From positions 28,849 through 92,848 of the forward strand of contig CANLTZ010000018.1 in assembly GCA_947494145.1 (NCBI GenBank): 64,000 bases of DNA, in the 5' to 3' direction. Position 1 is the first letter of the stretch, and each line of letters starts with the position of its first letter. The notes beneath the pieces are model-generated. The model had not been told where the DNA came from. It searched no databases and saw only the letters and a program-made list of their open reading frames with translations. Positions 19,709 to 33,497 of the stretch are shown here, piece after piece. The position numbers and the translations under genes are program-made. Source of the stretch: an uncultured Jannaschia sp. Lineage in GTDB: Bacteria > Pseudomonadota > Alphaproteobacteria > Rhodobacterales > Rhodobacteraceae.

Positions 19709-21583
19709 CTACTCGGCTGGCGTGACACCCAGGCGGTCGCGTAACTCCGCCCGCCAAGTGGCAGCACGTTTGGCAACCAGAGGCGCGCGGACTTCTTGCG
19801 GTGTGGCCATAGCGCCATGGAGGCGGACGCCGGAAAGCCAGGACAACGGCGCGGCGAAAAGCAGGCTCACCATTACGGGAAGCAGCCAGAGCGACACGAA
19901 ACCCGTAGTCATGCCGAGCACCAGGGTCAGCCCCAGCACGGTCTCCAAGGCGTGAAAACGGAAGAGCGTGAGCCAGCTTTGGCGCTGGCCGTCGCGGGCC
20001 TGCGGTGTCCAGTCAAGAGGCCGACCCGAGAGGGCCGAGGCCACGGCAAGGGTCTGTTGCACCATAAGAACCGGGGCATAGGCGATGGAGACCAGTATCT
20101 CGACGGCCAAAGATGTTGCGAAGCGCAATCCCCCGCCCAGCTTGGCAAGCGACACGCCAGAAGCCAACAAAGCCGCGGCGCCGATCAGCTTGGGCGCCAG
20201 CAACAGCGCATAAAGCGTCACCATCAGCCAGATATGGTTCACTGGCGACATTTCGGGCCAGTTGGGCTGAAGCGGGTTGTCGGGCGAAAAGTAGTTGATG
20301 ACGGACTTGTCTTCGGACACGCCGATCACGGCCCAGATTGTCAGAAGCAGGAACCAGAGCGGCGACAGAAGATAGCCCACCGCCCCATGAAACAGGTGGA
20401 AGCGCGACAGCGCGTGGAAGCCGCGCGTGCCCAGCAGGCCCAGATGTTGCAGATTACCCTTGCACCAGCGGCGGTCGCGCAGCACGTGGTCAATGAGCGT
20501 GGGGGGTGTTTCCTCGTAGCTTCCGCGCAGGCGCGGCAAGAAGCGAACGCCCCAGCCCGCACGGCGCAACAGGCCCGCTTCGATGAAATCGTGACTTAGG
20601 ATCAGGTTGTCGCCACCGCGCAGGCCACGCACGCGGGGCAGACCCGCGCTGGAGGCGAAGGCGCGGGTGCGGATGATGGCGTTGTGGCCCCAGTAATTGC
20701 CCTCCCGCCCGGTCCAACGGGCCAACCCTTCGGCGAGGGCCACACCATAGACGGCGTTGGCGAATTGCTGGCTGCGCGCAAACAGGGTGCGCGCCCCGAT
20801 CAGTTGCGGAAAGGATTGGATGAGGCCCGCGCCCGGGTCACGGCCCATTGCGTCGGCCAGGGCACGAATGGCGCCCGCGCTCATCAAGCTGTCAGCGTCG
20901 AGGACGAGCATGGCATCATGGCCGCCGCCCCAATGTTCAACCCATTGCGATAGGTTTCCAACCTTGCGGTCTGTGTTCTGTGCGCGGCGGCGATACCAGA
21001 TATCGGCATCGGGCAGCCGAGCGCGCAAGGCGTCATAGGCAGCCTCTTCCTGTGCGGCGCGGTCGGGATTGCGGGTGTCCGACAAAATATAGAGCGACCA
21101 GCGATGATGCCCCGGCGCACGGGCTAGCCGTTCCAGCATGGCAGCGGCATTGCCGAAGACGTCCCAAGGGGCTTCTTCGTGAACGGGCACGAGAAGGGCC
21201 ACATCCAGCGGGCGCACGGGCCCATCTTCGGGGGCGGCATTGCGCAAAAGCGCGCCGGAGCCTGCAAGCACCGTCACGAAGGTCAACGCGATCCAGAAGA
21301 AGCCCAGACCGATCAGCGCAGCCAACAGACCCTCGGCCCAGGTGGTGCCATCGGTGGCGAACCAGGCAAGAAACCCCCAAAGCAGCGCCACGGTGGCACC
21401 AAAAGCTGGAAGGAAGGTCGCAGCCCGCCAGATGAGCGCGCTATGATCGGTTCGGTGGTCTGGCGCGGCATCATCACGGAAGCCACGAGCCAAGTCCTGG
21501 CGCGGATGGGCCAGCGGCGCATGGGGCGGCATGGAGGCGTTCTGCGGTACGGCCGTCATGACCGGGTCCACCGATAAAGCCAC
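19709..21583 (-). CDS. opgH: Osmoregulated periplasmic glucan glucosyltransferase H
   Basis: GT2 motifs LDADS, NYWGHNAIIR, SHDFIEA, RDRRWCKGNLQH. Confidence 0.9.
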   Translation of the reverse strand: MALSVDPVMTAVPQNASMPPHAPLAHPRQDLARGFRDDAAPDHRTDHSALIWRAATFLPAFGATVALLWGFLAWFATDGTTWAEGLLAALIGLGFFWIALTFVTVLAGSGALLRNAAPEDGPVRPLDVALLVPVHEEAPWDVFGNAAAMLERLARAPGHHRWSLYILSDTRNPDRAAQEEAAYDALRARLPDADIWYRRRAQNTDRKVGNLSQWVEHWGGGHDAMLVLDADSLMSAGAIRALADAMGRDPGAGLIQSFPQLIGARTLFARSQQFANAVYGVALAEGLARWTGREGNYWGHNAIIRTRAFASSAGLPRVRGLRGGDNLILSHDFIEAGLLRRAGWGVRFLPRLRGSYEETPPTLIDHVLRDRRWCKGNLQHLGLLGTRGFHALSRFHLFHGAVGYLLSPLWFLLLTIWAVIGVSEDKSVINYFSPDNPLQPNWPEMSPVNHIWLMVTLYALLLAPKLIGAAALLASGVSLAKLGGGLRFATSLAVEILVSIAYAPVLMVQQTLAVASALSGRPLDWTPQARDGQRQSWLTLFRFHALETVLGLTLVLGMTTGFVSLWLLPVMVSLLFAAPLSWLSGVRLHGAMATPQEVRAPLVAKRAATWRAELRDRLGVTPAE

Positions 21584-23109
21584 ACTTCGGAGACCGCCGC
21601 GCCGTCGCGGAAAATCTGGGCCCGCAGCTCAACGGCGTCGTAATCGCCAGGGTCGAAGGTGAATGCCAGACGCGCGCCCCCTGTTTCCGGGTTGCGCTGA
21701 ATGATGCCTTCGGACGTCTCGGCCCGCGCGGAATTGATGCGGATCGTCAAACCTTCAAGCGCACCGAACCTTTCAGGCACGTCCAGCGCCGGATGTTCGG
21801 CAAAGTCGATAGCTGCCAGCCAGGCATCCTTGTTGAAGTTGAGGCCCATATGGGTGTCGAGCACGCGCGAAACGTCATCACGCCGCGGCGGCGCGGCGCC
21901 GCCGTCTTCGTCGCCCCAGGTCATGCGGTAGGCGAAGCGGTGTTCGCGACCGGGCCGCAGCGGTTCGCGAGGGCGCCAATAGGCGACGATATTGTCGTAG
22001 ATTTCCTTGTCGGACGGAATTTCCACCAGTCGCACGACGCCCGGCCCCCAATCGCCCTCTGGCTCGATCCAGAGGCCGGGGCGTTCGTGGTAATGCGCCT
22101 CCAAGTCGGCGAAGTCCGACAGGCGGCGGGCGCGTTGCATCAGGCCAAAGCCGCGCGGACTGTCATCAACGAAGCTGGAAACCTGAAGCGAAACGGGGTT
22201 GGCCAGCGGACGCCACAGCATCTCACCCGCGCCATTCCAGATGAGCAGGCCGTCATTGTCGTGGATGGCAGGGCGGAAGTCTTTGAAACGGTGACGGTTC
22301 GTCTGATCATACAAGAACATGGAGGTCAGCGGCGCGATGCCCACATGGTCCAGATCGACGCGCGGGAAAAGCGAGGCCTCGACGCGCATTTCGCAGGCCT
22401 CGCCCGGGGTGACCTCGAACCGGTAAGCGCCCGTGACAGACGGGCTATCGAGCAGGGCATGGACAACCATGCGATCATCACCGGGCACCGGTTCTTCGAC
22501 CCAGAAGCGAATGAAATCGGGGAACTCCTCACCTTCCGGGTCACCGGTCCGCAAGGCAAGGCCGCGCGCGGACAAGCCGTAGGCATGGGCGGCCCCAATG
22601 GCGCGGAAGTAGCTGGCACCTTGGAAGACAGCAAATTCGCGGTGCTTCATCTCGCCAGGGAATTGGTGCCGCAGGCGCAGGCCAGAATAGCCCATGGTTT
22701 CATCCACGGGCAGTTGCGGCGCATCTTCGGTGCCGGTGAACAGGTCAAAGTCGAAGGCCAGGCGGTTGGCTTGCCCCGCCGACACGACATCCACCTCCAC
22801 AGCGCGCGGGAAGTAGAGGCCGGGATGGAAGAGATCCATTTCGAATGGCAGGTCTTCTTCCGCCCAAACCGCTTTCTGTGTGTCGAACCAGATCTTGCGA
22901 TATTCGTCGTAGGTCAGATTCATCCACGGCTCAGGCACCGACGGGCGCAACATGAAGTCCTTCACAGACAGCGCGCGCGCCATGTCGCGGACGGTGTCGG
23001 GCCCGAAGGGCTCAGATGACAAAAAGCGGGGCATGGCCGCGCGAGCGGGTGCCGCTAAAAGGGCAAGCGCCGAAGTGCCGGCGGCCAGGAAAGCGCGGCG
23101 TGTGGTCAT
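21556..23109 (-). CDS. opgG: Periplasmic glucan biosynthesis protein G/D family
   Basis: Tat-type TRRAFL leader; FQGASYFRA, YGLSARGLA, EEFPDF, APLTSMF, GFGLMQR, DNIVAYW. Confidence 0.9.
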   Translation of the reverse strand: MTTRRAFLAAGTSALALLAAPARAAMPRFLSSEPFGPDTVRDMARALSVKDFMLRPSVPEPWMNLTYDEYRKIWFDTQKAVWAEEDLPFEMDLFHPGLYFPRAVEVDVVSAGQANRLAFDFDLFTGTEDAPQLPVDETMGYSGLRLRHQFPGEMKHREFAVFQGASYFRAIGAAHAYGLSARGLALRTGDPEGEEFPDFIRFWVEEPVPGDDRMVVHALLDSPSVTGAYRFEVTPGEACEMRVEASLFPRVDLDHVGIAPLTSMFLYDQTNRHRFKDFRPAIHDNDGLLIWNGAGEMLWRPLANPVSLQVSSFVDDSPRGFGLMQRARRLSDFADLEAHYHERPGLWIEPEGDWGPGVVRLVEIPSDKEIYDNIVAYWRPREPLRPGREHRFAYRMTWGDEDGGAAPPRRDDVSRVLDTHMGLNFNKDAWLAAIDFAEHPALDVPERFGALEGLTIRINSARAETSEGIIQRNPETGGARLAFTFDPGDYDAVELRAQIFRDGAAVSEVWLYRWTRS

Positions 23110-24398
23110 CGCTTCGCCCTCCACGGTTGGGATTTGAACCAACCCGCGCCGTAGGCGCAGGCGATCAGCAGGCCGAAGCCCGTCAGGTTGACCAAGGCCC
23201 AGGTAAAACCGTTGCGACCGATCAAATCGAGCAGGTAGCCGTTGACCCGCGCCAGCACCATGGAAAAGACAAAAACCGCGAGGCTTTGCTGGCCGACCTT
23301 CATGACGATGGCAACGAATTCATCCCAGATGCGCGCGGCCAGGCCATGGCCTGCCGCGATCAGGCGATGCCCACCCTCGCCCGCCGCGGCCCAGCACAGA
23401 TAGGCCAGCGCCAGGAAATGGGCATAATGCAGGATGGCGAAGTCGGATTTATCGAACCAGGGCCGATTTGCCTGTCGCCAATCAAAGATGGGATTGCAGC
23501 GCCCGAAGCCGGTCTCGGTACAGCCCGTCAAGCCAATATAGATATCTCGCACGAAATCTGTCTGGAACATCCGGAACCCGACCGATGACAGCAGGAAGCT
23601 GACGAGCACGACCGCCAGCGAAAGCCCGATGAGCCAGGGACGCACAGGGGGGGCGGGAATCCAGCCGCGCATGAAGGCGAAACCGGTGAAGAAAAGGAGC
23701 TGCCAGCCGAAAGGATTGAAAAACCAAGTGCGGTCCGACCATGGCTCGGCCGGGAAAGCCAGATGCAGATGGCCCAAGCCCAGCCATTCCAGGAAAGCTT
23801 CCTGTGCGAAGAGCCAGATGGTGACGCTGAGAGCAGCCAAAGCGGGCAACGAGACCCGGGCGACGGCCACATAAAGCGGCATCAGCACCAGCACGACCAT
23901 ATACATCGGCAAGATGTCGAAATAGTTGGGCACATAGGTGAGCGTCATCAGCCCCACGATCTGCGTTGCAGGGTCCGAAAAAAAGCGCGTCAGGTTGAGC
24001 GTGCCGATATAGACTTTCTCATGCACAGCCCAACTGTCGACCAAGGCCAAAAGCATGGCGATAGCCAGGAACATGCAGATATGGGCCCAGTAGATTTGCC
24101 AAACCCGGAAACCCACGCGCGAGGCTCCCATCGTCCAACCCATGCGGTCAAAACTGCGCCCAAACGCGATGGCAGAAGCCATGCCCGAACAAAAGACGAA
24201 GATTTCGGTGGCATCGGAAAAGCCGAAGCGCGCGGGGATCCACAGCGTCCAGGCATTCCCGGGGGTATGGGCCAGCAGGATGATAAACATCGCCAACCCC
24301 CGAAAGAAATCCAACCGGGGGTCTCGCACGGTCGCGCTCGCCTGCGCCGTCATTGGCGCTGGGCGGGCGAAAGCTGCATCGGGGGATGTGACACTCAT
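23106..24398 (-). CDS. opgC: OpgC-family glucan succinyltransferase
   Basis: RDPRLDFFRGLA, GFSDATEIFVFCSG, FDILPMY, FNPFGWQLLF. Confidence 0.88.
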   Translation of the reverse strand: MSVTSPDAAFARPAPMTAQASATVRDPRLDFFRGLAMFIILLAHTPGNAWTLWIPARFGFSDATEIFVFCSGMASAIAFGRSFDRMGWTMGASRVGFRVWQIYWAHICMFLAIAMLLALVDSWAVHEKVYIGTLNLTRFFSDPATQIVGLMTLTYVPNYFDILPMYMVVLVLMPLYVAVARVSLPALAALSVTIWLFAQEAFLEWLGLGHLHLAFPAEPWSDRTWFFNPFGWQLLFFTGFAFMRGWIPAPPVRPWLIGLSLAVVLVSFLLSSVGFRMFQTDFVRDIYIGLTGCTETGFGRCNPIFDWRQANRPWFDKSDFAILHYAHFLALAYLCWAAAGEGGHRLIAAGHGLAARIWDEFVAIVMKVGQQSLAVFVFSMVLARVNGYLLDLIGRNGFTWALVNLTGFGLLIACAYGAGWFKSQPWRAKR

Positions 24399-24430
24399 AC
24401 GGTTGATTCTGCGGTTGCTCGGACCGTCAA

Positions 24431-25795
24431 TTAACCTGTTGCACCTTGCGAACAAGTACCATCGGAGGCCTGAGCAATCATTTGCCGCCGCACCGCAGCG
24501 TAGTGATCCTCATGGCCGCCACGGCGGCGGGTCCGGTCGGCAAGAAGGGCCTCGACCTCGGCGAAGCGACCGGCGCGCAGGCCAGCATCGATCGTGAGCC
24601 GCTCAAACACGTCACGTTGGGCGTGGCTGCCCCCCGCGTTTTGCATTTCAGGCCGAGCCCGGGTGAGCGAAGTAAACGCCTGGCCATAATTGCCATCACC
24701 GAAGGCTTCGAGCCCAAGGGCCGCATCCAAACCGGGCCGAGCCATACGCGCCGAGACGTCGCAATCGGCGCGCTGCGCATCGGCCGCGATCCGGCGCAGA
24801 AGGCGCGCGGTGGCATCGTCCCGTTCTTCGTGTGTAAGGGCCAAGAGATAATGAAGGTCGGCGAAGATCAGGCAACCGTCCTGCGTGCGCTGTTCGGACA
24901 GGTCAGCCAGCTCTTCCCAGCGGGCGCCCACATCGACGCCCTCCAATTCCAACCGGCTCAACAGCGACGTGGCGTTGGAGATGTCGCGGTAATCGTCGGT
25001 CTTCTCCGCACGAATTTCCGTGTCGTAGAGGGCAAGCGCCTCATCCATCCGGCCAAGCTCAAGCAGCATAAGCGCCTTGTGCCACCAAACGTGGAAGCGG
25101 AAATTGTTGCAATGCGACCAAGCGGCTTCGCGGCCATGAAGCCAATTGAGTCCCCCTTCCGCATCGGCAGTCATGTCGTGGACATGGGCCACGGCATGTA
25201 GGCCCCAGGCATCGTCAGGCGCCAGTGTCAGCGCAGCCCGGCCCGTCAGGGCAGCGCGGGCATAGTCGCCAGTTTCTTCCAGCGCGAAAGCGTGGCAGCC
25301 CAGAAGGTAGCCCCGGCCCGCATGGTCTGCCGCGTAATGGGGCAGCACATTCTCGATAGAGCTGCGCATCCCGTCACTGTCGCCGATCACGAAGCGCAGC
25401 GCGTGGCTAAGCTTCATGGCGAGCGTATCAGTGGGCGCGGTCGCCAGGACATCTTCGAGCGTCTCAATGGCCACACCGGGCTGGCCGGACAGTACATTGC
25501 GAAGCGCGGCGATGAGCGCGCGTTCGCGACCATTTGCGCCCTCCATGTGCGCCTCGGACGCGGCGAGTGCCTGTCGCGCTTCATCCATCAATTCGCGGCG
25601 GCCAAGAAGCGCGTAAAACAGCCCCTTCACCGCATAGGCAGCGGCATAGTCGGGGGCCAGTTCAAGAAGGCGGCCAAGATGTTGGGGCGTTGCCGCGCCA
25701 TGGGCCAGAAAGGCGCCAACCATACCATCCCATTCGGCAATGGCGGCCTGATCCGACAAGGTGACGGGCTGGTCGAAACGGTCGGTTCGGGTCAT
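24431..25795 (-). CDS. TTC38-like tetratricopeptide repeat protein
   Basis: HAFALEE, DAWGLHAVAHV, HVWWHKAL, GGSHAQRDVF motifs. Confidence 0.7.
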   Translation of the reverse strand: MTRTDRFDQPVTLSDQAAIAEWDGMVGAFLAHGAATPQHLGRLLELAPDYAAAYAVKGLFYALLGRRELMDEARQALAASEAHMEGANGRERALIAALRNVLSGQPGVAIETLEDVLATAPTDTLAMKLSHALRFVIGDSDGMRSSIENVLPHYAADHAGRGYLLGCHAFALEETGDYARAALTGRAALTLAPDDAWGLHAVAHVHDMTADAEGGLNWLHGREAAWSHCNNFRFHVWWHKALMLLELGRMDEALALYDTEIRAEKTDDYRDISNATSLLSRLELEGVDVGARWEELADLSEQRTQDGCLIFADLHYLLALTHEERDDATARLLRRIAADAQRADCDVSARMARPGLDAALGLEAFGDGNYGQAFTSLTRARPEMQNAGGSHAQRDVFERLTIDAGLRAGRFAEVEALLADRTRRRGGHEDHYAAVRRQMIAQASDGTCSQGATG

Positions 25796-25951
25796 GTACG
25801 GCTCCGGTTGTGCACGTGTTAAGAGTCGCACAACGCTTACCGATGCGACCTTTGCTATCCTATAGCGTGGGGTCGGTGCTGACGGATACGTGAGTGGACG
25901 TCAGCGTCAGGTGAGCAAGTTTCCGAACGTCGCGTGCCGGTTTCCGCCGAC

Positions 25952-27133
25952 TCACCCATCTTCAAAGGGGTCCGACCGCGACAGACGGTCGCTGTCTGCC
26001 CCGAACCGGGGCGGCGGGTGCCTGTACGTAACCGGCGTTGCTGAAAGCTTAAGCGGATTGCCGATGAGCGGCAGGGTCAGTCCATCGGCCTGCATGTCGA
26101 TGGCCATATCGCGGGCGGCCACTTGGTCGGAAGCGAAAACCTCGGGCAAGGTTTGAACCGGGCCTACGGGGACGCGGGCGCCTTCCAGTGCGGCGATGAC
26201 CTGCGCGGTGGTCTTCGCAGCGATGGCCGGTTCCAGCACGTCCGCCAGAGCGTCACGGTTTTCGAGCCGCGCGGGATTGGTTGCAAAGCGCGGATCGTCC
26301 GGGGGGGCCGTTATATCAAGAACGTCGCAGAAGCGCCTGAATTGACTGTCATTCCCTACGGCCACGATGACATGACCATCGGCGGTGGCATAAACGCCGT
26401 AAGGCACGATGTTGGGATGGCCATTGCCGCGTCGGATGGGGGTCTGGCCGCTCAGCCGCGTATTCACGCCTTCATTAATCGTCCACGCGATCTGACTGTC
26501 GACGAGCGCAACTTCGACCTGCTGTCCTTCACCCGTGGCTTCCGCGTGCCGAAGCGCGGCCAGAAGACCCACACAGGCATACATGCCGCACATCACGTCG
26601 GCGATGCCAACGCCCACTTTCATGGGCGCGCCATCGGGGTCGCCGGTAATGGACATGATCCCACCATAGCCCTGCGCCATGAGGTCATAGCCCGGCTTGG
26701 ACGCGTTGGGCCCGGTTTGGCCGAAGCCCGAGATTGAGCCATAGACCAGCTTGGGATTCACCGCGCGCAGGCTGCTGTAGTCCAGGCCGTACTTAGCGAG
26801 ACCCCCGGGCTTGAAGTTTTCCAGCAGGACATCGGCCAAAGCCGCGAGCCGCCGGACCTCCGCCTGGCCATCGGGCGACGCGATATCGATGGCCACCGAC
26901 AACTTATTGCGGTTCGCGCACATGAAATAAGCCGACAAATCCGTATCTTCTGCGCCATCCTTCACGTAGGGCGGGCCCCATTGGCGGGTGTCATCGCCCG
27001 CGGTGGCGGGATTTTCGACCTTCAGCACGGTGGCGCCCAGATCGCCAAGCAGTTGGGTACAGGTGGGCCCTGCCAAGATCCGGCTCAGGTCAAGGACGCG
27101 CAGCCCCGCCAAAGGGCCTTCAGATCCGGCCAT
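25952..27133 (-). CDS. Class III (CaiB/BaiF) CoA-transferase
   Basis: VLDLSRILAGP, GDDTRQWGPP, NRNKLS, ENFKPG, SISGFGQTGP, GYDL. Confidence 0.88.
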   Translation of the reverse strand: MAGSEGPLAGLRVLDLSRILAGPTCTQLLGDLGATVLKVENPATAGDDTRQWGPPYVKDGAEDTDLSAYFMCANRNKLSVAIDIASPDGQAEVRRLAALADVLLENFKPGGLAKYGLDYSSLRAVNPKLVYGSISGFGQTGPNASKPGYDLMAQGYGGIMSITGDPDGAPMKVGVGIADVMCGMYACVGLLAALRHAEATGEGQQVEVALVDSQIAWTINEGVNTRLSGQTPIRRGNGHPNIVPYGVYATADGHVIVAVGNDSQFRRFCDVLDITAPPDDPRFATNPARLENRDALADVLEPAIAAKTTAQVIAALEGARVPVGPVQTLPEVFASDQVAARDMAIDMQADGLTLPLIGNPLKLSATPVTYRHPPPRFGADSDRLSRSDPFEDG

Positions 27134-28727
27134 CGTAAGCTCTCCGATCGATTTCACAGGCGATGAGGGTGAATGTATCGGCGTCTTGGGCTTCCACCAG
27201 CGCCGCGCGAAGCGCTGCACGGTCCGCCACGGTGACACCGTTGCCGCCGAACGCGCGGGCGATAGCTGCGTGGTCGGTGGCCCCGAAATCCACGCCCGCA
27301 TTGGCCATCTGGCGCTGGCGCTGTTTCATTTCGATAAGGGCCAGGCTGCGGTCGACGAAGACCACGAAGATCACCGGCAGGCCCAGGGCCGCGGCGGAGG
27401 CCAACTCCCCCGCGACCATCAAGAAGCCCGCATCGCCCATGAAGCCGACCACCGCGCGATCCGGTGCCGCGCGTTTCGCGCCAATGGCCAGCGGCAGGGC
27501 GCAGCCCATGGTGCAAAGGCCGGACGATTGCAGCAGCGTGCGGGGCGCGTCACATTCCCATTGCTGGCTGAGCAGGATGCGATGCGCGCCACTATCGGCG
27601 GTGGCGATTGTCCGGGGCGGGAGGACATCGCGGCAAACCTCCACTACGGAACCGGGTCCCCAATCTTCGGCGGCGAAGTCGGCACGTAGGGCGGCGCGCC
27701 GATCAGAGACATTCCACCGGTCACGCGGGGCCACGTCTTGCAGCGCCGCGAGCGTGTCACCCACATGGGCCACCACCTCTAGCGTGGCGCTATGCATCCC
27801 ATGGGTGTTGGCGTCATGGGCAATGTCGAGGACATTCTGGCTGGCCGGATCCCAGACATCGCGCCAGCCGGTGCGCATCTCAATCGGGTCATAACCTGCC
27901 AGCAGGATAAGGTCAGCCTCCCGGAAAAGGGGCAGCAGATGGGTGTCGGCCTTGGGCGACAGCCCTGCCCCCCCAAGCGCAAGCGAGTGGTCTTCGGGCA
28001 GCAACCCCTTGCCCTTGTAGGTGGTCACAAGGGGGATATTGTGGGCCTCGCACAAAGCGCGGATTTGGGGTCCAGCCTCGTCCCGAACAGCGTCGAGACC
28101 CGCCAGCATGATCGGGCGCTCGGACGTGGAGAGCCAGTCGCGGGCGGTCGCCAGCGCCTTCGCCCCGATGGCGGCGGATGCCGCAGGCGGGCGCGCGACT
28201 CGCACGGGCGCGACGGACGCATCGGCGACAGAAATCGGGACATCCACCAAGACGGGGCCGCAGCGCCCGCCCGCCTGCCCCATGGCGATGCGCACGGCCT
28301 TGTCGGCTTGAACGGCGGCGGCGTTGGGCGTCAATGTGAAGGTGGCTTTGGTGATGGGCGTGAAGACCGCGCGATGGTCCAGAACCTGGTGTGTATAGGT
28401 CTCCGCTTCATCGGCATCGACGCAGCCAGTCAGGACGATCATGGGCACCCGGTCTTGATCGGCATTGGCCACCACATTCACGCCATTCATGGCGCCCGGG
28501 CCTACGGTGGCCACCAGAACGGCAGGGGCACCGTCCACGTGGTGGGCACCTTCGGCCATGAAACCCGCGGCGTTTTCATGGTGGCACAGAATGAAGGTGA
28601 TCCCCGCGCGTTCAAGCGCATCCACCAGGGTCAGGACTTCACCCCCTGGCATGCCGAAGGCACGGCGGCATCCGGCGAGGTAGAGGCGTTGGGCGAGGGC
28701 GTCGGCGGCGCGAATGGAAGCGGTCAT
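27120..28727 (-). CDS. Thiamine-diphosphate-dependent enzyme (acetolactate synthase/decarboxylase-like)
   Basis: FGMPGGE, HENAAGFMAEG, GPGAMN, TMGCALP, GDAGF TPP-binding motif. Confidence 0.85.
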   Translation of the reverse strand: MTASIRAADALAQRLYLAGCRRAFGMPGGEVLTLVDALERAGITFILCHHENAAGFMAEGAHHVDGAPAVLVATVGPGAMNGVNVVANADQDRVPMIVLTGCVDADEAETYTHQVLDHRAVFTPITKATFTLTPNAAAVQADKAVRIAMGQAGGRCGPVLVDVPISVADASVAPVRVARPPAASAAIGAKALATARDWLSTSERPIMLAGLDAVRDEAGPQIRALCEAHNIPLVTTYKGKGLLPEDHSLALGGAGLSPKADTHLLPLFREADLILLAGYDPIEMRTGWRDVWDPASQNVLDIAHDANTHGMHSATLEVVAHVGDTLAALQDVAPRDRWNVSDRRAALRADFAAEDWGPGSVVEVCRDVLPPRTIATADSGAHRILLSQQWECDAPRTLLQSSGLCTMGCALPLAIGAKRAAPDRAVVGFMGDAGFLMVAGELASAAALGLPVIFVVFVDRSLALIEMKQRQRQMANAGVDFGATDHAAIARAFGGNGVTVADRAALRAALVEAQDADTFTLIACEIDRRAYDGRI

Positions 28728-29863
28728 TCCGCCGCAATAGCACCCGCGCGGTCGGCGTCAAAGGCGGCGGGGCGCTGCGGCAGCTTCTGGCCCAGGACAT
28801 GGGCAGCGATCTGGTTGCGCAATACTTGGGCGGTGCCACCGCCGATGGTGAACATGCGCACGTCGCGGTACATCCGCTCCAACGGGTGGGCATCGGAATA
28901 GCCCGCGGCACCAAAGCATTGCAGCGCGCGGTCGACCACGCGCACAGCCGTTTCCGACGCCAGAAGCTTGGCGCGGGCCGCTTTGGTGCGGTCGGGCAAA
29001 GCGCCGGAGGCGGCGGCGTCCTGCAACAGCAGCCGCGCAGCGGCCAATTCGGTATCCATATCGGCCAGCATCCATTGCAGGCCCTGGAACTCGGCCAGTG
29101 GGCGGTCGAACTGGCGGCGCTTGAGAAGGTGGTCACGGGCAAGGTTCGCGGCTTGGGCCGCGACACCCAAGGCAATCGTGCCCGCTCCGATGCGCTGGAC
29201 ATTATAGGCCGCCATGAGATCGCCGAAATCTGCATCCAGTAGCGCGGTTTCAGGAACGAAGTGATGGTCGAAATGCAGTTCCGCCTCGGGCATGCCGCAA
29301 AGGCCCATGGTGCGTTCCAACCGCGCCACGCGCAGCCCCTCGCCCCCTTCGGTCAGAAAGCCGCGAATGCCGTCTTCGGTCTGGGCAAAAACCAAGTGCA
29401 GGCGGGAGACGCCGCCGCCTGTGATCCAGTGTTTGACGCCATCGATGCGCCAACCGCCGGGCACGCGGTGTGAGCGGGTCGTCATCGCCCGCGCGTCCGA
29501 GCCCGCGCCAGGTTCGGTGATGCAAATAGCGGGCTTGTCGCCGGCGCGCACGAGCTGAGACCAGCGGGCCTTCTGCGCGGGTGTGCCATAGGCCATCACC
29601 GCCGAAAGCGCACCCATATTGCCTTCCACCAGAATCCGGCCGGTCAACGTGCAGGCGCCGGATATGGCCTCAATTGCCGGAAGCAAGTCGGCCAGGCTGG
29701 CCCCTGCGCCGCCAAAGTCCTTTGGGATGGTCGCCCCCATAAGGCCCGCGCGGACCAGGTCGGCCACATTGTCTTCGGGATAGATGCGTGTCTGGTCCCA
29801 ATGGTCGGCGCGGGCAGCGAAACCAGGCGCAATAGCGGCCGCGCGGGCGACGAGATTGGGCAT
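28724..29863 (-). CDS. acdA: 3-sulfinopropionyl-CoA desulfinase-like acyl-CoA dehydrogenase family protein
   Basis: GRILVEGNMGA, AGDKPAICITEP, WITGGGVSRLHL, AYNVQRIGAG, MFTIGGGTAQ match recalled motifs of Advenella Acd(DPN7); the usual ACAD catalytic Glu is absent at both canonical positions. Confidence 0.72.
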   Translation of the reverse strand: MPNLVARAAAIAPGFAARADHWDQTRIYPEDNVADLVRAGLMGATIPKDFGGAGASLADLLPAIEAISGACTLTGRILVEGNMGALSAVMAYGTPAQKARWSQLVRAGDKPAICITEPGAGSDARAMTTRSHRVPGGWRIDGVKHWITGGGVSRLHLVFAQTEDGIRGFLTEGGEGLRVARLERTMGLCGMPEAELHFDHHFVPETALLDADFGDLMAAYNVQRIGAGTIALGVAAQAANLARDHLLKRRQFDRPLAEFQGLQWMLADMDTELAAARLLLQDAAASGALPDRTKAARAKLLASETAVRVVDRALQCFGAAGYSDAHPLERMYRDVRMFTIGGGTAQVLRNQIAAHVLGQKLPQRPAAFDADRAGAIAAE

Positions 29864-29958
29864 TGCAACAGCTCTCCTACAAGGTGAATGCAACCTGAAG
29901 GGGTGACAGCTTCAGGTCCATCGAATTAAGTTGGATCGTAACTTCAGGATAACTGAAT

Positions 29959-30780
29959 ATGCAGAACCGCGACCTGAAGACACTTCGCATGATCGCGCGG
30001 ACCGGCAGCTTTCGCGAAGCGGCGGACCGGCTCAACATGACGCTATCGGCGGTGTCGATGCAGATGAAATCACTGGAAACGACGCTGGGTGCTGCGCTTT
30101 TCGACCGCACGACACGCCCGCCAAAGCTCACACCGTTGGGCCGGGCCGTGGCCGACCGGGCGGGCGATGTGCTGGATGCAGAAGCCGCGCTGCGGGCCCT
30201 GGCTGGGCCGGATGCGCCGCTGGCGGGCCGGTTCCGGCTGGGGCTGGTGGCCAGCGCGGGGCCAAGGTTTCTACCCCGCTTTTTGCAAACGGCGCCAGGT
30301 GCCCTGCCCTATGCCAGTTTCGACTTTCGAACAGGCCTGAGCGAATGGTTGGAAGACGAAGTGGCCAGCCGCTCGCTGGACGCAGCCGTTCTGACAGCCA
30401 CGGGCACGCCCCCGGGCGGGCTGCGCCACCACGTCTTGGCCCGCGACCGGCTTGTGGCGGCGGCGCGACCCGGCCTGCCGGAAACCGCGCCGTTCTTGCA
30501 TTTCGCCCCATCGACGGGAATCGGGCGATTGATCGCGGCGGCCTTGGTCCGACGGCCCGATTTGGCCGCACGGCCCCGTATCGTATTGGATCACTTGATG
30601 ACGATCCGCGCCTGCCTGGAATCGGGTGCGGGCGCGACCATCCTGCCTGAGATCGATTTGGAAGGGATGGAGATGCTCCGCGACCCGCTGCCCGACACGC
30701 GGACTTTGGTGCTTGCGACAGCCGAAGGCACGGCGTTGGACCGGGAAGCGACCCGCTTGGCGAATTTGCTGGCGGGGTGA
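29959..30780 (+). CDS. LysR-family transcriptional regulator
   Basis: GSFREAADRLNMTLSAVSMQMKSLE HTH; divergent from the acdA operon. Confidence 0.9.
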   Translation: MQNRDLKTLRMIARTGSFREAADRLNMTLSAVSMQMKSLETTLGAALFDRTTRPPKLTPLGRAVADRAGDVLDAEAALRALAGPDAPLAGRFRLGLVASAGPRFLPRFLQTAPGALPYASFDFRTGLSEWLEDEVASRSLDAAVLTATGTPPGGLRHHVLARDRLVAAARPGLPETAPFLHFAPSTGIGRLIAAALVRRPDLAARPRIVLDHLMTIRACLESGAGATILPEIDLEGMEMLRDPLPDTRTLVLATAEGTALDREATRLANLLAG

Positions 30781-30891: not shown

Positions 30892-31368
30892 CTAACGCGC
30901 GGCTTCGGCCACGGCCGCAAAGGCCGCGTCGAGTTCTGCGGCGATGGGCGCAAGTTCAGGCGTTTCCGCAATATAGGGTGCCAAGCGCCGCGACGGCGGA
31001 ATATAGGAAAGCGTCGCCGTGCCATCGGCATTTTCGGTGACATAGACGCGAATGGGCGCCTCGATCATGGCGGGCGTCGACAACCGCAGAATGCGCACGG
31101 CAAAGTCGTTGTTGAACAATCCGATGACGCGGTTGCCCGGGATCTCGATCCCACGGGACGCCGCGGCACCCGTGGGCCCTGCCATGGTCACCACGGCAAG
31201 GCCGCCCGCCTTGGCCGCAGCGCGAGTATCCGCCGCGAGGGTTTCGAAATCCTTATTAGTCGCAATGACCTGCCAGCCGTCTTCCGGCGCCATATCGGCT
31301 ACGTCAGCGAAGACCATGGGCGCAAGCGCCAGCCAGAGGGCAATGAAAAGCGGAAAGCGTATGGACAT
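30892..31368 (-). CDS. DUF302-domain exported protein (host gene, in frame with the integrase ORF)
   Basis: Signal-peptide-like start MSIRFPLFIALWLALAPMVFA; AMIEAPIRVYVTE..DG...LSY motif. Confidence 0.7.
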   Translation of the reverse strand: MSIRFPLFIALWLALAPMVFADVADMAPEDGWQVIATNKDFETLAADTRAAAKAGGLAVVTMAGPTGAAASRGIEIPGNRVIGLFNNDFAVRILRLSTPAMIEAPIRVYVTENADGTATLSYIPPSRRLAPYIAETPELAPIAAELDAAFAAVAEAAR

Positions 31369-33198
31369 GGTGGTACCTGCGGCGGGAAGCGACGGCAGAC
31401 CAACATCCCCGCAACGCCGCGACAAGTCTTGCCCGTTCACGTTCCCGTTGCCCCTTGCGAAGATGGTGCCCCTTGGCATAGACCCGCCGGCGGACAGGTG
31501 GCCGAGTGGTCGAAGGCGCGCGCCTGGAAAGTGCGTAGGCGGGAAACCGTCTCGAGGGTTCGAATCCCTTCCTGTCCGCCACCCTGGAACATAAGTGCGA
31601 ACGCCGTTCGCCGCCGTTCCTACGCCATCCGAAGAGGCCAGCGCTCGGATCAGCTCGTCATGCGAGCCCATGATGCGGACTTCGCGATCTGCTACTTCGA
31701 CTCGCTGCGCCAAAGCCCGCAAATGATCGCGCCGAAATCCGCCGTCCTTTCCACGCATCTTCTGCCGGGCGGACTTCGCCATTCGGCGTAGGTGCTTTGG
31801 CGAGAGATGCTGGCCTGCATTCTGGATCGCGCTTTTAGCGCGCTCGGCGTCGATGCGTGCCTGGTCTCGCGTTGCCGTCAACTCGACGACCCGCTCGCGC
31901 AACGACGGATCGTCGAGATCAGCAATCCCACTTTCGATGGCGCCATAGAGGCGCTTCAAGCGCTGCTCAGCTTCCGCCGCCCGTTTCGTCAGCTCATTGG
32001 CCGTATCGCGACGGCGGGTATCTCGCTCTTCCCGGCGGTCAAGATGCGCTGACAGCAGATCTTCCAGCCGCTTCGGATTGAGCAGTCGGCGTTCGAGATG
32101 CTCCGCAACCAGATGGTCGAGCTTGTCCATCCGGATCGTCCGGCCTAGGCACCCGGTCTTGCCTTGCCGGGCCGCCGTTGAACAAGTGTAGTAGCGGTAG
32201 TGCTTCGCTTTGCCCGATGTGCGCAGCGTCATGGCCCCACCGCACTCCGCGCAGAAGGCGATGCCGGTGAGCAAGGTCGGCCCACTGACGGTGCGGCCCG
32301 GCGTCACCATCGGCGCGCGCCTCTTGAGGAGCTTCTGGACAGCATCGAACGTCTCGAGGTCCACGATGGGCGGCACCGCAACGGTGATGACTTCGGTCTG
32401 CTGCTTGGGCGTTCCGTCCTTGTAGCTCTTTCCCCATTCATGCTCGCCGATATAGGTCCGGCGGGTCAGGATGCGGTGGACCGTGCCGACGCCCCAACGT
32501 CCGCCGGTACGCGTATAAAGCTTGCGCTCATTGAGATAGGTGGCGATCGCCTTGACACCCATGCGACCGCTTTCGCCATCGCCGTTCAGCGCCAGCTGGA
32601 ACATCAGCCGGATCGTGTCCGCATGCAGCGGATCGATCTCAAGGACCTTCTTGACCTTCGCGCCGCGCTTCTCGGCATCGACCACGCGATAGCCAACCGG
32701 CGGCAACGAACCGTTCCAAAAGCCTTGTCGCGCATTTTCTTTCAGCGCCCGCAGCGTGTGCTTGGCGTTTTCCTTCGACTGATACTCATCGAAGAGCGCC
32801 ATGATCTGGCGCATCATGACATGCATCGGATCGTCGCCGAGTTCCTGCGTCATCGAAACCAGCTTCACGCCGTTCTTCGCGAGCTTGCGGACGTAAAACT
32901 CAAGTTCGAAGTGATCGCGGAAGAAGCGACTGAACGAATGGACCACCACGATATCGAAGGCAGAAGGCTTTGCCGTTCCCGCTTCGATCAAGCGCTGGAA
33001 CTCCGGCCGCTTGTCGTTCGTCGCCGACGCCCCTGGCTCGACATAGGTTTCGACGAGGTCGTATCCGCGCGCCTCACAGTAGGTCTCGCCCTGGCGCTTC
33101 TGATCAGGAATGGAGACATCGTGCTCCGCCTGCCGTGCCGTCGAGACGCGCAGGTAGAGCGCGGCCCGCTGCTTCATTACAGGCTGCGGCGCGTTCAC
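30892..33198 (-). CDS. Large serine recombinase (integrase); about 539 ICE-encoded codons, ORF continues without a stop through the tRNA into the DUF302 gene
   Basis: YLRVSTARQ catalytic Ser, VHSFSRFFRD, CAECGG/YYTC zinc ribbon, coiled coil; GTG start overlaps the higA TGA. Confidence 0.9.
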   Translation of the reverse strand: MNAPQPVMKQRAALYLRVSTARQAEHDVSIPDQKRQGETYCEARGYDLVETYVEPGASATNDKRPEFQRLIEAGTAKPSAFDIVVVHSFSRFFRDHFELEFYVRKLAKNGVKLVSMTQELGDDPMHVMMRQIMALFDEYQSKENAKHTLRALKENARQGFWNGSLPPVGYRVVDAEKRGAKVKKVLEIDPLHADTIRLMFQLALNGDGESGRMGVKAIATYLNERKLYTRTGGRWGVGTVHRILTRRTYIGEHEWGKSYKDGTPKQQTEVITVAVPPIVDLETFDAVQKLLKRRAPMVTPGRTVSGPTLLTGIAFCAECGGAMTLRTSGKAKHYRYYTCSTAARQGKTGCLGRTIRMDKLDHLVAEHLERRLLNPKRLEDLLSAHLDRREERDTRRRDTANELTKRAAEAEQRLKRLYGAIESGIADLDDPSLRERVVELTATRDQARIDAERAKSAIQNAGQHLSPKHLRRMAKSARQKMRGKDGGFRRDHLRALAQRVEVADREVRIMGSHDELIRALASSDGVGTAANGVRTYVPGWRTGRDSNPRDGFPPTHFPGARLRPLGHLSAGGSMPRGTIFARGNGNVNGQDLSRRCGDVGLPSLPAAGTTMSIRFPLFIALWLALAPMVFADVADMAPEDGWQVIATNKDFETLAADTRAAAKAGGLAVVTMAGPTGAAASRGIEIPGNRVIGLFNNDFAVRILRLSTPAMIEAPIRVYVTENADGTATLSYIPPSRRLAPYIAETPELAPIAAELDAAFAAVAEAAR
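31492..31581 (+). tRNA. tRNA-Ser (anticodon GGA); ICE integration site
   Basis: Acceptor stem GGACAGG/CCTGTCC, G discriminator, encoded CCA, anticodon loop CT-GGA-AA, long variable arm, GTTCGAATC T-loop; 90 nt. Confidence 0.96.
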
Positions 33199-33497
33199 GC
33201 TGCTTTCCTTAAGGCTCTTTGCACCGCCTTGGGGTTGCGGTCGATGACGAGCAGGTACGCCCGCGCAGGGCCTTCCGGCACCCGCTGCCCTTGCTCCCAA
33301 TGGCGCAGTGTCTTGATCGAGAAGCCGAACCGCCCGGCGAACTCTTCCTGCGTCATGTTCAGCTTCGTGCGGATCGCCTTCACGTCGATCACAGCGGGAA
33401 TGTGGACACCGTATTGGTTCTCGTCCGCCGTCTCTTCAGCATAGGCTACGGCCTCTTCCAACCCGCGCCGGATGCTATCGGCTGCCTTGCCGCTCAT
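33195..33497 (-). CDS. higA: HigA-type XRE antitoxin
   Basis: DVKAIRTKLNMTQEEFAGRFGFSIKTLRHWEQG..PEGPARAYL. Confidence 0.85.
   Translation of the reverse strand: MSGKAADSIRRGLEEAVAYAEETADENQYGVHIPAVIDVKAIRTKLNMTQEEFAGRFGFSIKTLRHWEQGQRVPEGPARAYLLVIDRNPKAVQRALRKAA

Follow-up and report, generated by a model that had tools for sequence, protein, structure and literature searches.

The DNA analysed here is a stretch of 64,000 nucleotides (nt) from an uncultured Jannaschia sp. of the Rhodobacteraceae (contig CANLTZ010000018.1 of assembly GCA_947494145.1, positions 28,849 to 92,848), which we call the window. Our subject is a set of three overlapping genes in it, encoding a protein with the acyl-coenzyme A (CoA) dehydrogenase (ACAD) fold, a thiamine diphosphate (TPP) enzyme and a class III CoA-transferase, divergent from a gene for a LysR-family regulator. 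We read the set as a LysR-controlled, translationally coupled acd-tpp-act operon that would turn an organic sulfinate into propionyl-CoA and sulfite without a 3-mercaptopropionate dioxygenase (Mdo), and we hold this overall picture to be about evenly poised between right and wrong. Desulfinases (Acd) have so far been known from beta-proteobacteria alone, degraders of synthetic thio-acids in which a thiol dioxygenase supplies the sulfinate. The desulfinase and the transferase (Act) are new members of known families. What is new is the conserved TPP partner, the lack of Mdo and a bridge to opgC and a TTC38-like protein, none of which is described in the literature that we searched.

The ACAD-fold protein contains all three ACAD domains of Pfam (Acyl-CoA_dh_N, _M and _1). 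NF042439, the NCBIfam model for 3-sulfinopropanoyl-CoA desulfinase, gives it 509.5 bits against 220.8 bits for the next ACAD family, well outside what chance would give, and the ACAD paralogs of its own genome reach at most 244 bits on this model. Among solved structures, AcdDPN7 matches best (PDB 5af7, 334 bits). An earlier reading of the letters, without database searches (the sequence-only reading), had seen the arginine, cysteine and glutamine of this desulfinase and the loss of the catalytic glutamate, and had proposed an alignment with AcdDPN7. That alignment bears it out: the motifs TGRIL, AICIT, NVQRI and FTIGGGT are all found, R76, C114 and Q223 align with Arg84, Cys122 and Gln246, whose roles in AcdDPN7 we take to be those given in its structure paper, and FTIGGGT, in place of the catalytic-glutamate motif, aligns with FTIAGGT of AcdDPN7. 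All 45 family members have R76 and Q223, 43 have C114, and in all 45 the column of the catalytic glutamate holds glycine or alanine. In a tree of the family, in which some rows are badly extracted and the root is uncertain, the window protein and its Jannaschia relatives nest within desulfinase group B with ordinary branch lengths; group B also contains proteins that pass the model cut-off and are named desulfinase by NCBI, and AcdDPN7 belongs to group A. The idea that the Jannaschia proteins form a separate paralogous family was rejected on account of this nesting. The window protein is probably a slightly trimmed desulfinase of the 3-sulfinopropionyl-CoA family.

Coordinates and overlaps read directly from the sequence agree with the earlier description of an overlapping three-gene set divergent from a LysR gene. 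The stop of the desulfinase gene and the start of the TPP gene share the 4-nt overlap ATGA, and a 14-nt overlap, ATGGCCGGATCTGA, joins the TPP stop to the start of the CoA-transferase gene; because of these two overlaps, we take the three genes to be translationally coupled. The regulator has an N-terminal HTH_1 domain and a substrate-binding domain and is divergent from its target, as expected of the LysR type, and in related loci orthologs 42–65% identical to it are likewise divergent from the gene of the desulfinase. A truncated LysR was considered and rejected, as its 273 residues fit orthologs of 275–302 and its substrate domain is nearly complete. Between the two divergent genes lies a perfect dyad, ACCTGAAG-N9-CTTCAGGT (29893-29917), with a third half-site, CTTCAGG, at 29942-29948, and a motif resembling CTGAA...TTATTCGATTGT is found, as judged by eye, at the same intergenic position in clusters of other orders. 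The dyad is a putative operator. An Rfam scan returned a tRNA as the sole RNA element, and a terminator search between the CoA-transferase gene and the TTC38-like gene downstream of it detected none.

The CoA-transferase matches PF02515 over its full length (profile positions 1-365 of 366, 424 bits). It is closest to the succinate–glutarate or SUGCT type, with 462.6 bits on the succinate–glutarate CoA-transferase model, which is below the 750-bit equivalog cut-off of that model, and 282 bits against human SUGCT (9br6). Its identity is 56% over 369 residues, the GVGIADVM segment included, to the product of the gene directly upstream of Variovorax paradoxus acd, the position of Act, which supports the Act-like assignment made from the letters.

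The TPP enzyme has the features expected of the acetolactate synthase (ALS) group, namely three TPP domains in Pfam, the cofactor-activating glutamate (E51) and the GDG metal motif. Its best match in the PDB is AlsS of Bacillus subtilis (4rjj, 206 bits; range for catabolic ALS, 196–206), and AlsS and the Klebsiella pneumoniae ALS (1ozf) are its closest structures, sharing with it E51, THQxLD and a flavin-free GYDPIE: GYDPIEM aligns with GYDPIEY of AlsS, and no motif for binding flavin adenine dinucleotide is present. In flavin-dependent relatives the place of GYDPIE is taken by another motif. It differs from AlsS in several respects. The AlsS equivalog gives it 273 bits against a cut-off of 510, the biosynthetic ALS type 256 against 538, and the best NCBIfam match, PRK08322, 332 against 509; Gln487 of AlsS aligns with K468, which lies within a basic KQRQRQ stretch and is invariant in 111 of 111 orthologs, so that neither the glutamine of AlsS nor the tryptophan of acetohydroxyacid synthases occupies the acceptor-substrate position; and its context is catabolic or envelope-related, without acetoin or branched-chain amino acid genes. 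Besides K468, the residues E51, H113, Q114, R285, H382, R383, D432, G434 and D459 are invariant in the 111 orthologs. This pattern fits a non-oxidative enzyme whose substrate would be a free 2-oxo acid bearing an anionic tail.

For co-occurrence we used 301 Rhodobacteraceae genomes, one per genus, and counted a desulfinase from about 500 bits upwards, plus one cut-off gene. The desulfinase is present in 30 of them, about one in ten of the genera sampled, which makes it frequent in marine Alphaproteobacteria; the NF042439 cut-off is passed in 27. An ortholog of the TPP enzyme, single-copy wherever it occurs, is present in 89 genomes, 24 of the 30 with a desulfinase against 65 of the 271 without (odds ratio 12.7, p = 2e-9, uncorrected for phylogeny). 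The synteny survey proposed by the sequence-only reading shows that the pair recurs across several alphaproteobacterial orders: of the 24 Rhodobacteraceae genomes that have both genes, 11 have them side by side, the desulfinase gene is directly upstream of the TPP gene in 6 of 20 TPP loci of other alphaproteobacterial families, and adjacency is seen also in Hoeflea, Nitratireductor and Denitrobaculum. A lack of such synteny in other genomes, which that reading had named as a refutation, is thus not what the survey shows. The desulfinase-then-TPP order is kept in all adjacent loci mapped except one (L079; L and G numbers are our handles for loci and genomes), even without an adjoining transferase. 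The genes divergent from LysR are Acd-TPP-CoA-transferase in the window, other Jannaschia, Hoeflea, Nitratireductor and loci L132 and L052; CoA-transferase-Acd-TPP in four Rhodobacteraceae genomes; and Acd-TPP-aminotransferase in two genomes; Acd-TPP alone is also seen. On the TPP tree, adjacency requires no fewer than five changes; for Jannaschia, the best reading is that the ancestor had it and that three relatives (L001, L003 and L006) lost it.

In Advenella mimigardefordensis DPN7 the characterised cluster has the order LysR-CoA-transferase-Acd-Mdo (PMC5373536), made up of the LysR MIM_c31370, a family III CoA-transferase (c31380), Acd itself (c31390; structures 5af7/5ahs) and Mdo (c31400). 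The window shares with it a LysR gene beside the cluster, a class III CoA-transferase and a desulfinase that lacks the glutamate and keeps the equivalents of Arg84, Cys122 and Gln246. It differs in its Acd-TPP-CoA-transferase order, in a desulfinase that is about 50% identical and of group B rather than A, and in that our searches of its genome and of the relatives sampled turned up no Mdo-type gene. The four Rhodobacteraceae loci with the transferase first match the Advenella order, LysR-CoA-transferase-Acd-X, where X is the AlsS-like TPP enzyme in the slot of Mdo. Beyond the three genes, for which the sequence-only reading had remarked on the missing Mdo gene, searches with PF05995 (Mdo-type) gave no match in the genome of the window and a single weak one across the 301 genomes, and a Burkholderia Mdo-like protein found nothing in the 30 desulfinase-bearing genomes, a search run without a positive control.

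An ALS-like protein has appeared before in such a cluster. The acdA/act/mdo cluster of V. paradoxus TBEA6 encodes a "putative acetolactate synthase IlvX", which is 3.9- to 6.8-fold up on thiodipropionate and 3-sulfinopropionate (PMC6370202). There, as in the window, an Act-type transferase adjoins the desulfinase, but the ALS-like gene of TBEA6 is about 11 genes away. No TPP gene lies within 10 kb of two other beta-proteobacterial desulfinase clusters that we examined. In the literature we found no paper that ties a thiamine enzyme to a desulfinase, nor any on sulfinopropionate in roseobacters, and papers reporting fitness data are silent on the pair. As a separate observation, a gene for a PatB-family C-S lyase is directly upstream of CoA-transferase-desulfinase in Burkholderia cenocepacia (L160, 7326-8552), with an Mdo-like gene near; this lyase could release 3-mercaptopropionate from an S-substituted cysteine and so feed the classical route.

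Neighbouring genes, each in a few loci only, suggest that acidic sulfur amino acids go in and that sulfite comes out. In L127 and L022 the TPP gene is followed by an aspartate-transaminase-like gene, and class III aminotransferases are near the desulfinase in L131 and L133. L145, L038, L133 and L146 have a TAXI-TRAP transporter together with a universal stress protein; CuyA-like lyases with a TauE sulfite exporter occur in L145 and L038 and, by precomputed Pfam families, in L146, which also has a racemase with a D-amino-acid oxidase. A YeiH-type exporter is found in L120, and a YeeE-type sulfur transporter adjoins the TPP gene in L199. In one Rhodobacteraceae genome, a gene for a GcvT/DmdA-like aminomethyltransferase follows desulfinase-TTC38-like (L122, 8385-9560), which hints at a demethylation, for example of methylmercaptopropionate, upstream of the sulfinate.

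The mechanism that we propose runs as follows. Homocysteine sulfinate would be transaminated to 2-oxo-4-sulfinobutanoate; the AlsS-like, flavin-free TPP enzyme would decarboxylate a 2-oxo-dicarboxylate-type acid, for which 2-oxoglutarate and this compound, its sulfinate analogue, are the candidates; an unlinked, housekeeping semialdehyde dehydrogenase would oxidise the aldehyde to the acid used by the transferase; and, by homology to characterised enzymes, the transferase would form the sulfinyl-CoA ester from succinyl-CoA, as Act does, and the desulfinase would release sulfite from this 3-sulfinopropionyl-CoA-type ester, leaving propionyl-CoA. The specific reaction of the TPP enzyme, a decarboxylation of the 2-oxoglutarate type that includes 2-oxo-4-sulfinobutanoate, is put forward tentatively, at a probability of about one third; for 2-oxo-4-sulfinobutanoate as substrate the support is indirect, from the occasional aspartate-transaminase-like, CuyA-like, TauE and TAXI-TRAP neighbours. 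Its logic, by which an amino acid becomes a 2-oxo acid, then an aldehyde and finally an acid, is like that of the arginine transaminase pathway AruH-AruI, which comprises an aminotransferase, an ALS-like 2-oxo-acid decarboxylase and an aldehyde dehydrogenase, and the 5-guanidino-2-oxopentanoate decarboxylase model gives the TPP enzyme 220 bits. Unlike AruH-AruI, the window operon has no gene for an aminotransferase or an aldehyde dehydrogenase.

Several observations weigh against this reading, in its chemistry, in its precedents and, as laid out in the next paragraph, in the company that the TPP gene keeps. An adjacent aminotransferase is found in just 4 of 32 desulfinase loci. An aldehyde dehydrogenase is present in 2 of those 32 and in 1 of 80 TPP loci, several kb off and at about 30% identity, and its rarity, distance and low identity led us to reject a clustered dehydrogenase for the decarboxylase route. 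To our knowledge, no group B desulfinase has been assayed, and the window protein falls short of the curated 600-bit equivalog cut-off of NF042439. The sequencing runs that contain the stretch are DNA only, from an aquatic metagenome, and carry no expression data. As for IlvX, a possible counterpart of the window enzyme, deletion of its gene left growth of TBEA6 on thiodipropionate unchanged, and the authors of that study ascribed its abundance to the vicinity of the pathway genes (PMC6370202).

The desulfinase is absent from 65 of the 89 TPP-bearing genomes. In about 60 of 80 genome loci the order is instead TPP, CoA-transferase, TTC38-like, OpgC, OpgG and OpgH; the window itself holds this block (19709-27133), with the LysR-desulfinase pair lying between a DUF302 gene and the TPP gene, and its three relatives L001, L003 and L006 retain the block without LysR-ACAD. 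The gene for the secreted DUF302 protein, which in relatives often comes directly before the TPP gene, belongs to cluster c6; this cluster is upstream of the TPP gene in 28 of the 80 loci and between the CoA-transferase and TTC38-like genes in two. Outside the Rhodobacteraceae, OpgC is beside the TPP enzyme in 7 of 20 loci of other families, never together with a desulfinase, and since the internal orders differ there, the link is not mere Rhodobacterales synteny; the succession of the TPP–CoA-transferase pair and then TTC38-like-opgC-opgG-opgH, conserved across Alphaproteobacteria, links the window to OpgC/MdoC, which succinylates osmoregulated periplasmic glucans. Of 40 TPP-positive genomes 34 have OpgC, and of 40 TPP-negative ones 15; in these 15 it occurs without the TPP enzyme, the CoA-transferase and the TTC38-like protein. 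Four of the six TPP-positive genomes that lack OpgC are exactly those with desulfinase-TPP adjacency. Lastly, no alignment column separates TPP orthologs of the desulfinase context from those of the opgC context, and so the enzyme bears no mark of sulfinate specificity in its sequence. Because opgC-block loci without a desulfinase predominate and no column tells the contexts apart, the TPP enzyme is not dedicated to sulfinates but is a partner that two alternative neighbours share. Of the earlier proposal of a desulfinase, a TPP enzyme and an Act under LysR control, the ACAD family, the Act-like transferase, the divergent LysR, the synteny of the TPP gene with acd and the missing Mdo gene have stood, and the dedication of the TPP–CoA-transferase pair to sulfinates has not.

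The TTC38-like protein has weak TPR matches only in Pfam. Its model is confident (predicted local distance difference test score, 93), and a fold search with it gave generic TPR solenoids only, with TM-scores below 0.5. His200, His204, His239, His315, Arg381 and a GGSxAQRD motif are invariant, a conservation pattern that looks more like that of an enzyme than of a scaffold. Its orthologs accompany the TPP gene and opgC across alphaproteobacterial families, and paralogs 29–35% identical adjoin desulfinase genes in five genomes. TTC38-like genes were noted at L120, L122, L130, L135, L136, L192, L199 and L202.

These contexts raise an alternative, unlikely in our judgement and still to be reckoned with, in which the TPP enzyme works with the CoA-transferase and the TTC38-like protein in the acylation of periplasmic glucans through OpgC, and the LysR-desulfinase pair has merely settled alongside because it needs a succinyl-CoA-dependent transferase, which would be the only shared component, the TPP enzyme being uninvolved in the breakdown of the sulfinate. 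Succinyl-CoA is used by OpgC as well as by the Act-type transferase. The frequency of the block in Rhodobacterales and its presence, in a different internal order, in three further families speak for this explanation, as do the enrichment of OpgC among TPP-bearing genomes, the three Jannaschia relatives that have the block without LysR-ACAD and the likeness of the TPP sequences in both contexts. It does not account for desulfinase-TPP adjacency in genomes without any OpgC (G002, G022, G096 and G179) or without a neighbouring transferase (L125, L127, L135, L048, L185, L188 and L189), and the near-constant ACAD-then-TPP order and the overlap of the ACAD stop with the TPP start also argue against it. 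We found no description in the literature of a role for the TPP enzyme, the CoA-transferase or the TTC38-like protein in glucan succinylation. In the acd-tpp-act reading that we prefer, the LysR-desulfinase pair would have arrived, in a Jannaschia ancestor, directly upstream of the TPP-CoA-transferase-TTC38-opgC block. What the two contexts may have in common is succinyl-CoA-type C4 acyl chemistry, one neighbour being an acyltransferase thought to use succinyl-CoA and the other a desulfinase for what would be the sulfinate analogue of succinyl-CoA.

A second alternative concerns the reaction of the TPP enzyme, which could be an acyl-CoA lyase resembling oxalyl-CoA decarboxylase (OXC) or 2-hydroxyacyl-CoA lyase (HACL); the desulfinase would first desulfinate a 2-hydroxy-sulfinyl-CoA, for example 3-sulfinolactoyl-CoA, and the transferase would recycle formyl-CoA as in Frc/Oxc. 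The pairing of a TPP enzyme with a class III transferase is a hallmark of oxalate catabolism, the three enzymes would be self-sufficient, with no need of an aldehyde dehydrogenase, and the basic KQRQRQ segment might, speculatively, bind the phosphates of CoA. HACL and OXC enzymes are indeed detectable relatives in the PDB, at 123–139 bits, but the catabolic acetolactate synthases are closer, neither family is among the 25 best NCBIfam matches, and the THQ-LD and GYDPIE motifs of AlsS are retained. The desulfinase, moreover, keeps all residues tied to 3-sulfinopropionyl-CoA, and 3-sulfinolactate is not known as a natural metabolite. We consider a lyase quite improbable.

Less probable again is that the ACAD of the Jannaschia clade is a diverged, paralogue-like enzyme for another acyl-CoA and no 3-sulfinopropionyl-CoA desulfinase, for although it scores 509 bits where 600 are called for, bears the mere name "acyl-CoA dehydrogenase family protein" at NCBI throughout the clade, lacks 13 loop columns and has Asp, like true dehydrogenases, at the otherwise invariant Ala123, it sits in group B among cut-off-passing proteins with ordinary branch lengths, Arg76, Cys114, Gln223 and the Glu-less FTIGGGT are retained by all ten clade members, and its LysR partner and operator-like motif are common to canonical clusters. 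Three loop deletions, amounting to those 13 columns, and A123D are the sole differences of the clade from the family; the shortfall on NF042439 is due to the deleted columns, and the generic name to the score under the cut-off. Other ACADs were noted on the way. Four Rhodobacteraceae genomes (G058, G082, G150 and G206) have members of a third group, with about 390 bits on the desulfinase model. In three desulfinase-free TPP/opgC loci of other families (L190, L193 and L195), a different ACAD-family gene, 35–37% identical to that of the window, is found 3-6 kb from the TPP gene and near a TTC38-like or DUF302 gene.

The substrate of the TPP enzyme would reveal which natural sulfinate is mineralised to sulfite by these bacteria, which are abundant in the ocean; here our picture of the marine organic-sulfur cycle has a gap. 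The link of this enzyme to opgC and TTC38-like genes also offers a handle on two families without a function and on the acyl supply to periplasmic glucans. A more speculative proposal joins the two contexts: since no column separates the orthologs, the TPP enzyme and CoA-transferase might yield the same acyl-CoA in both; were this product 3-sulfinopropionyl-CoA or a near analogue of succinyl-CoA, an OpgC-type acyltransferase might add a sulfinate-bearing acyl group to periplasmic glucans of marine Alphaproteobacteria, and the desulfinase would be the recycling or catabolic branch. We regard this as a long shot, the faintest of the possibilities raised here; if true, a sulfinate-bearing glucan would be a new substituent, a biosynthetic use of an organosulfinate and the first function for bacterial TTC38-like proteins.

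Table 1. Features of the desulfinase operon and its surroundings (positions in the window).
Feature	Position	Strand	Remarks
3-sulfinopropionyl-CoA desulfinase-family ACAD-fold protein (probable)	28724-29863	-	379 aa; ATG at 29863 taken as start
AlsS-like thiamine diphosphate (TPP) enzyme, no FAD-type motif	27120-28727	-	535 aa
Class III (CaiB/BaiF, SUGCT/Act-like) CoA-transferase	25952-27133	-	393 aa
LysR-family regulator, divergent from operon	29959-30780	+	273 aa; HTH_1 and LysR_substrate domains
Divergent control region	29864-29958	.	95 nt between LysR and ACAD genes
TTC38-like all-helical TPR protein	24431-25795	-	454 aa; 156 nt downstream of CoA-transferase
opgC-opgG-opgH, osmoregulated periplasmic glucan genes	19709-24455	-	OpgC_C, MdoG and GT2 domains
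Secreted DUF302-family protein	30892-31368	-	tblastn, 72% identity to L002 ortholog over residues 1-140

To the right of the operon, an open reading frame of 802 residues (30892-33300, minus strand) suggests a fusion of a recombinase with DUF302. We rejected the fusion, since the frame merely runs on without a stop through GC-rich DNA: the DUF302 gene is complete by itself at 31368-30892, and a gene for tRNA-Ser(GGA) lies between the two parts (31492-31581, plus strand). Synteny with the Jannaschia relatives ends at this tRNA. From 31585 to about 38000, the region to its right looks like an island integrated at the tRNA; no direct repeat of att type was found for it. It encodes a large serine recombinase with Resolvase, Recombinase and Zn-ribbon domains, within the same open reading frame, and includes a stretch of low GC content (0.53–0.55) at 34-38 kb with a gene for an AAA/DUF4407-like protein of 681 residues.

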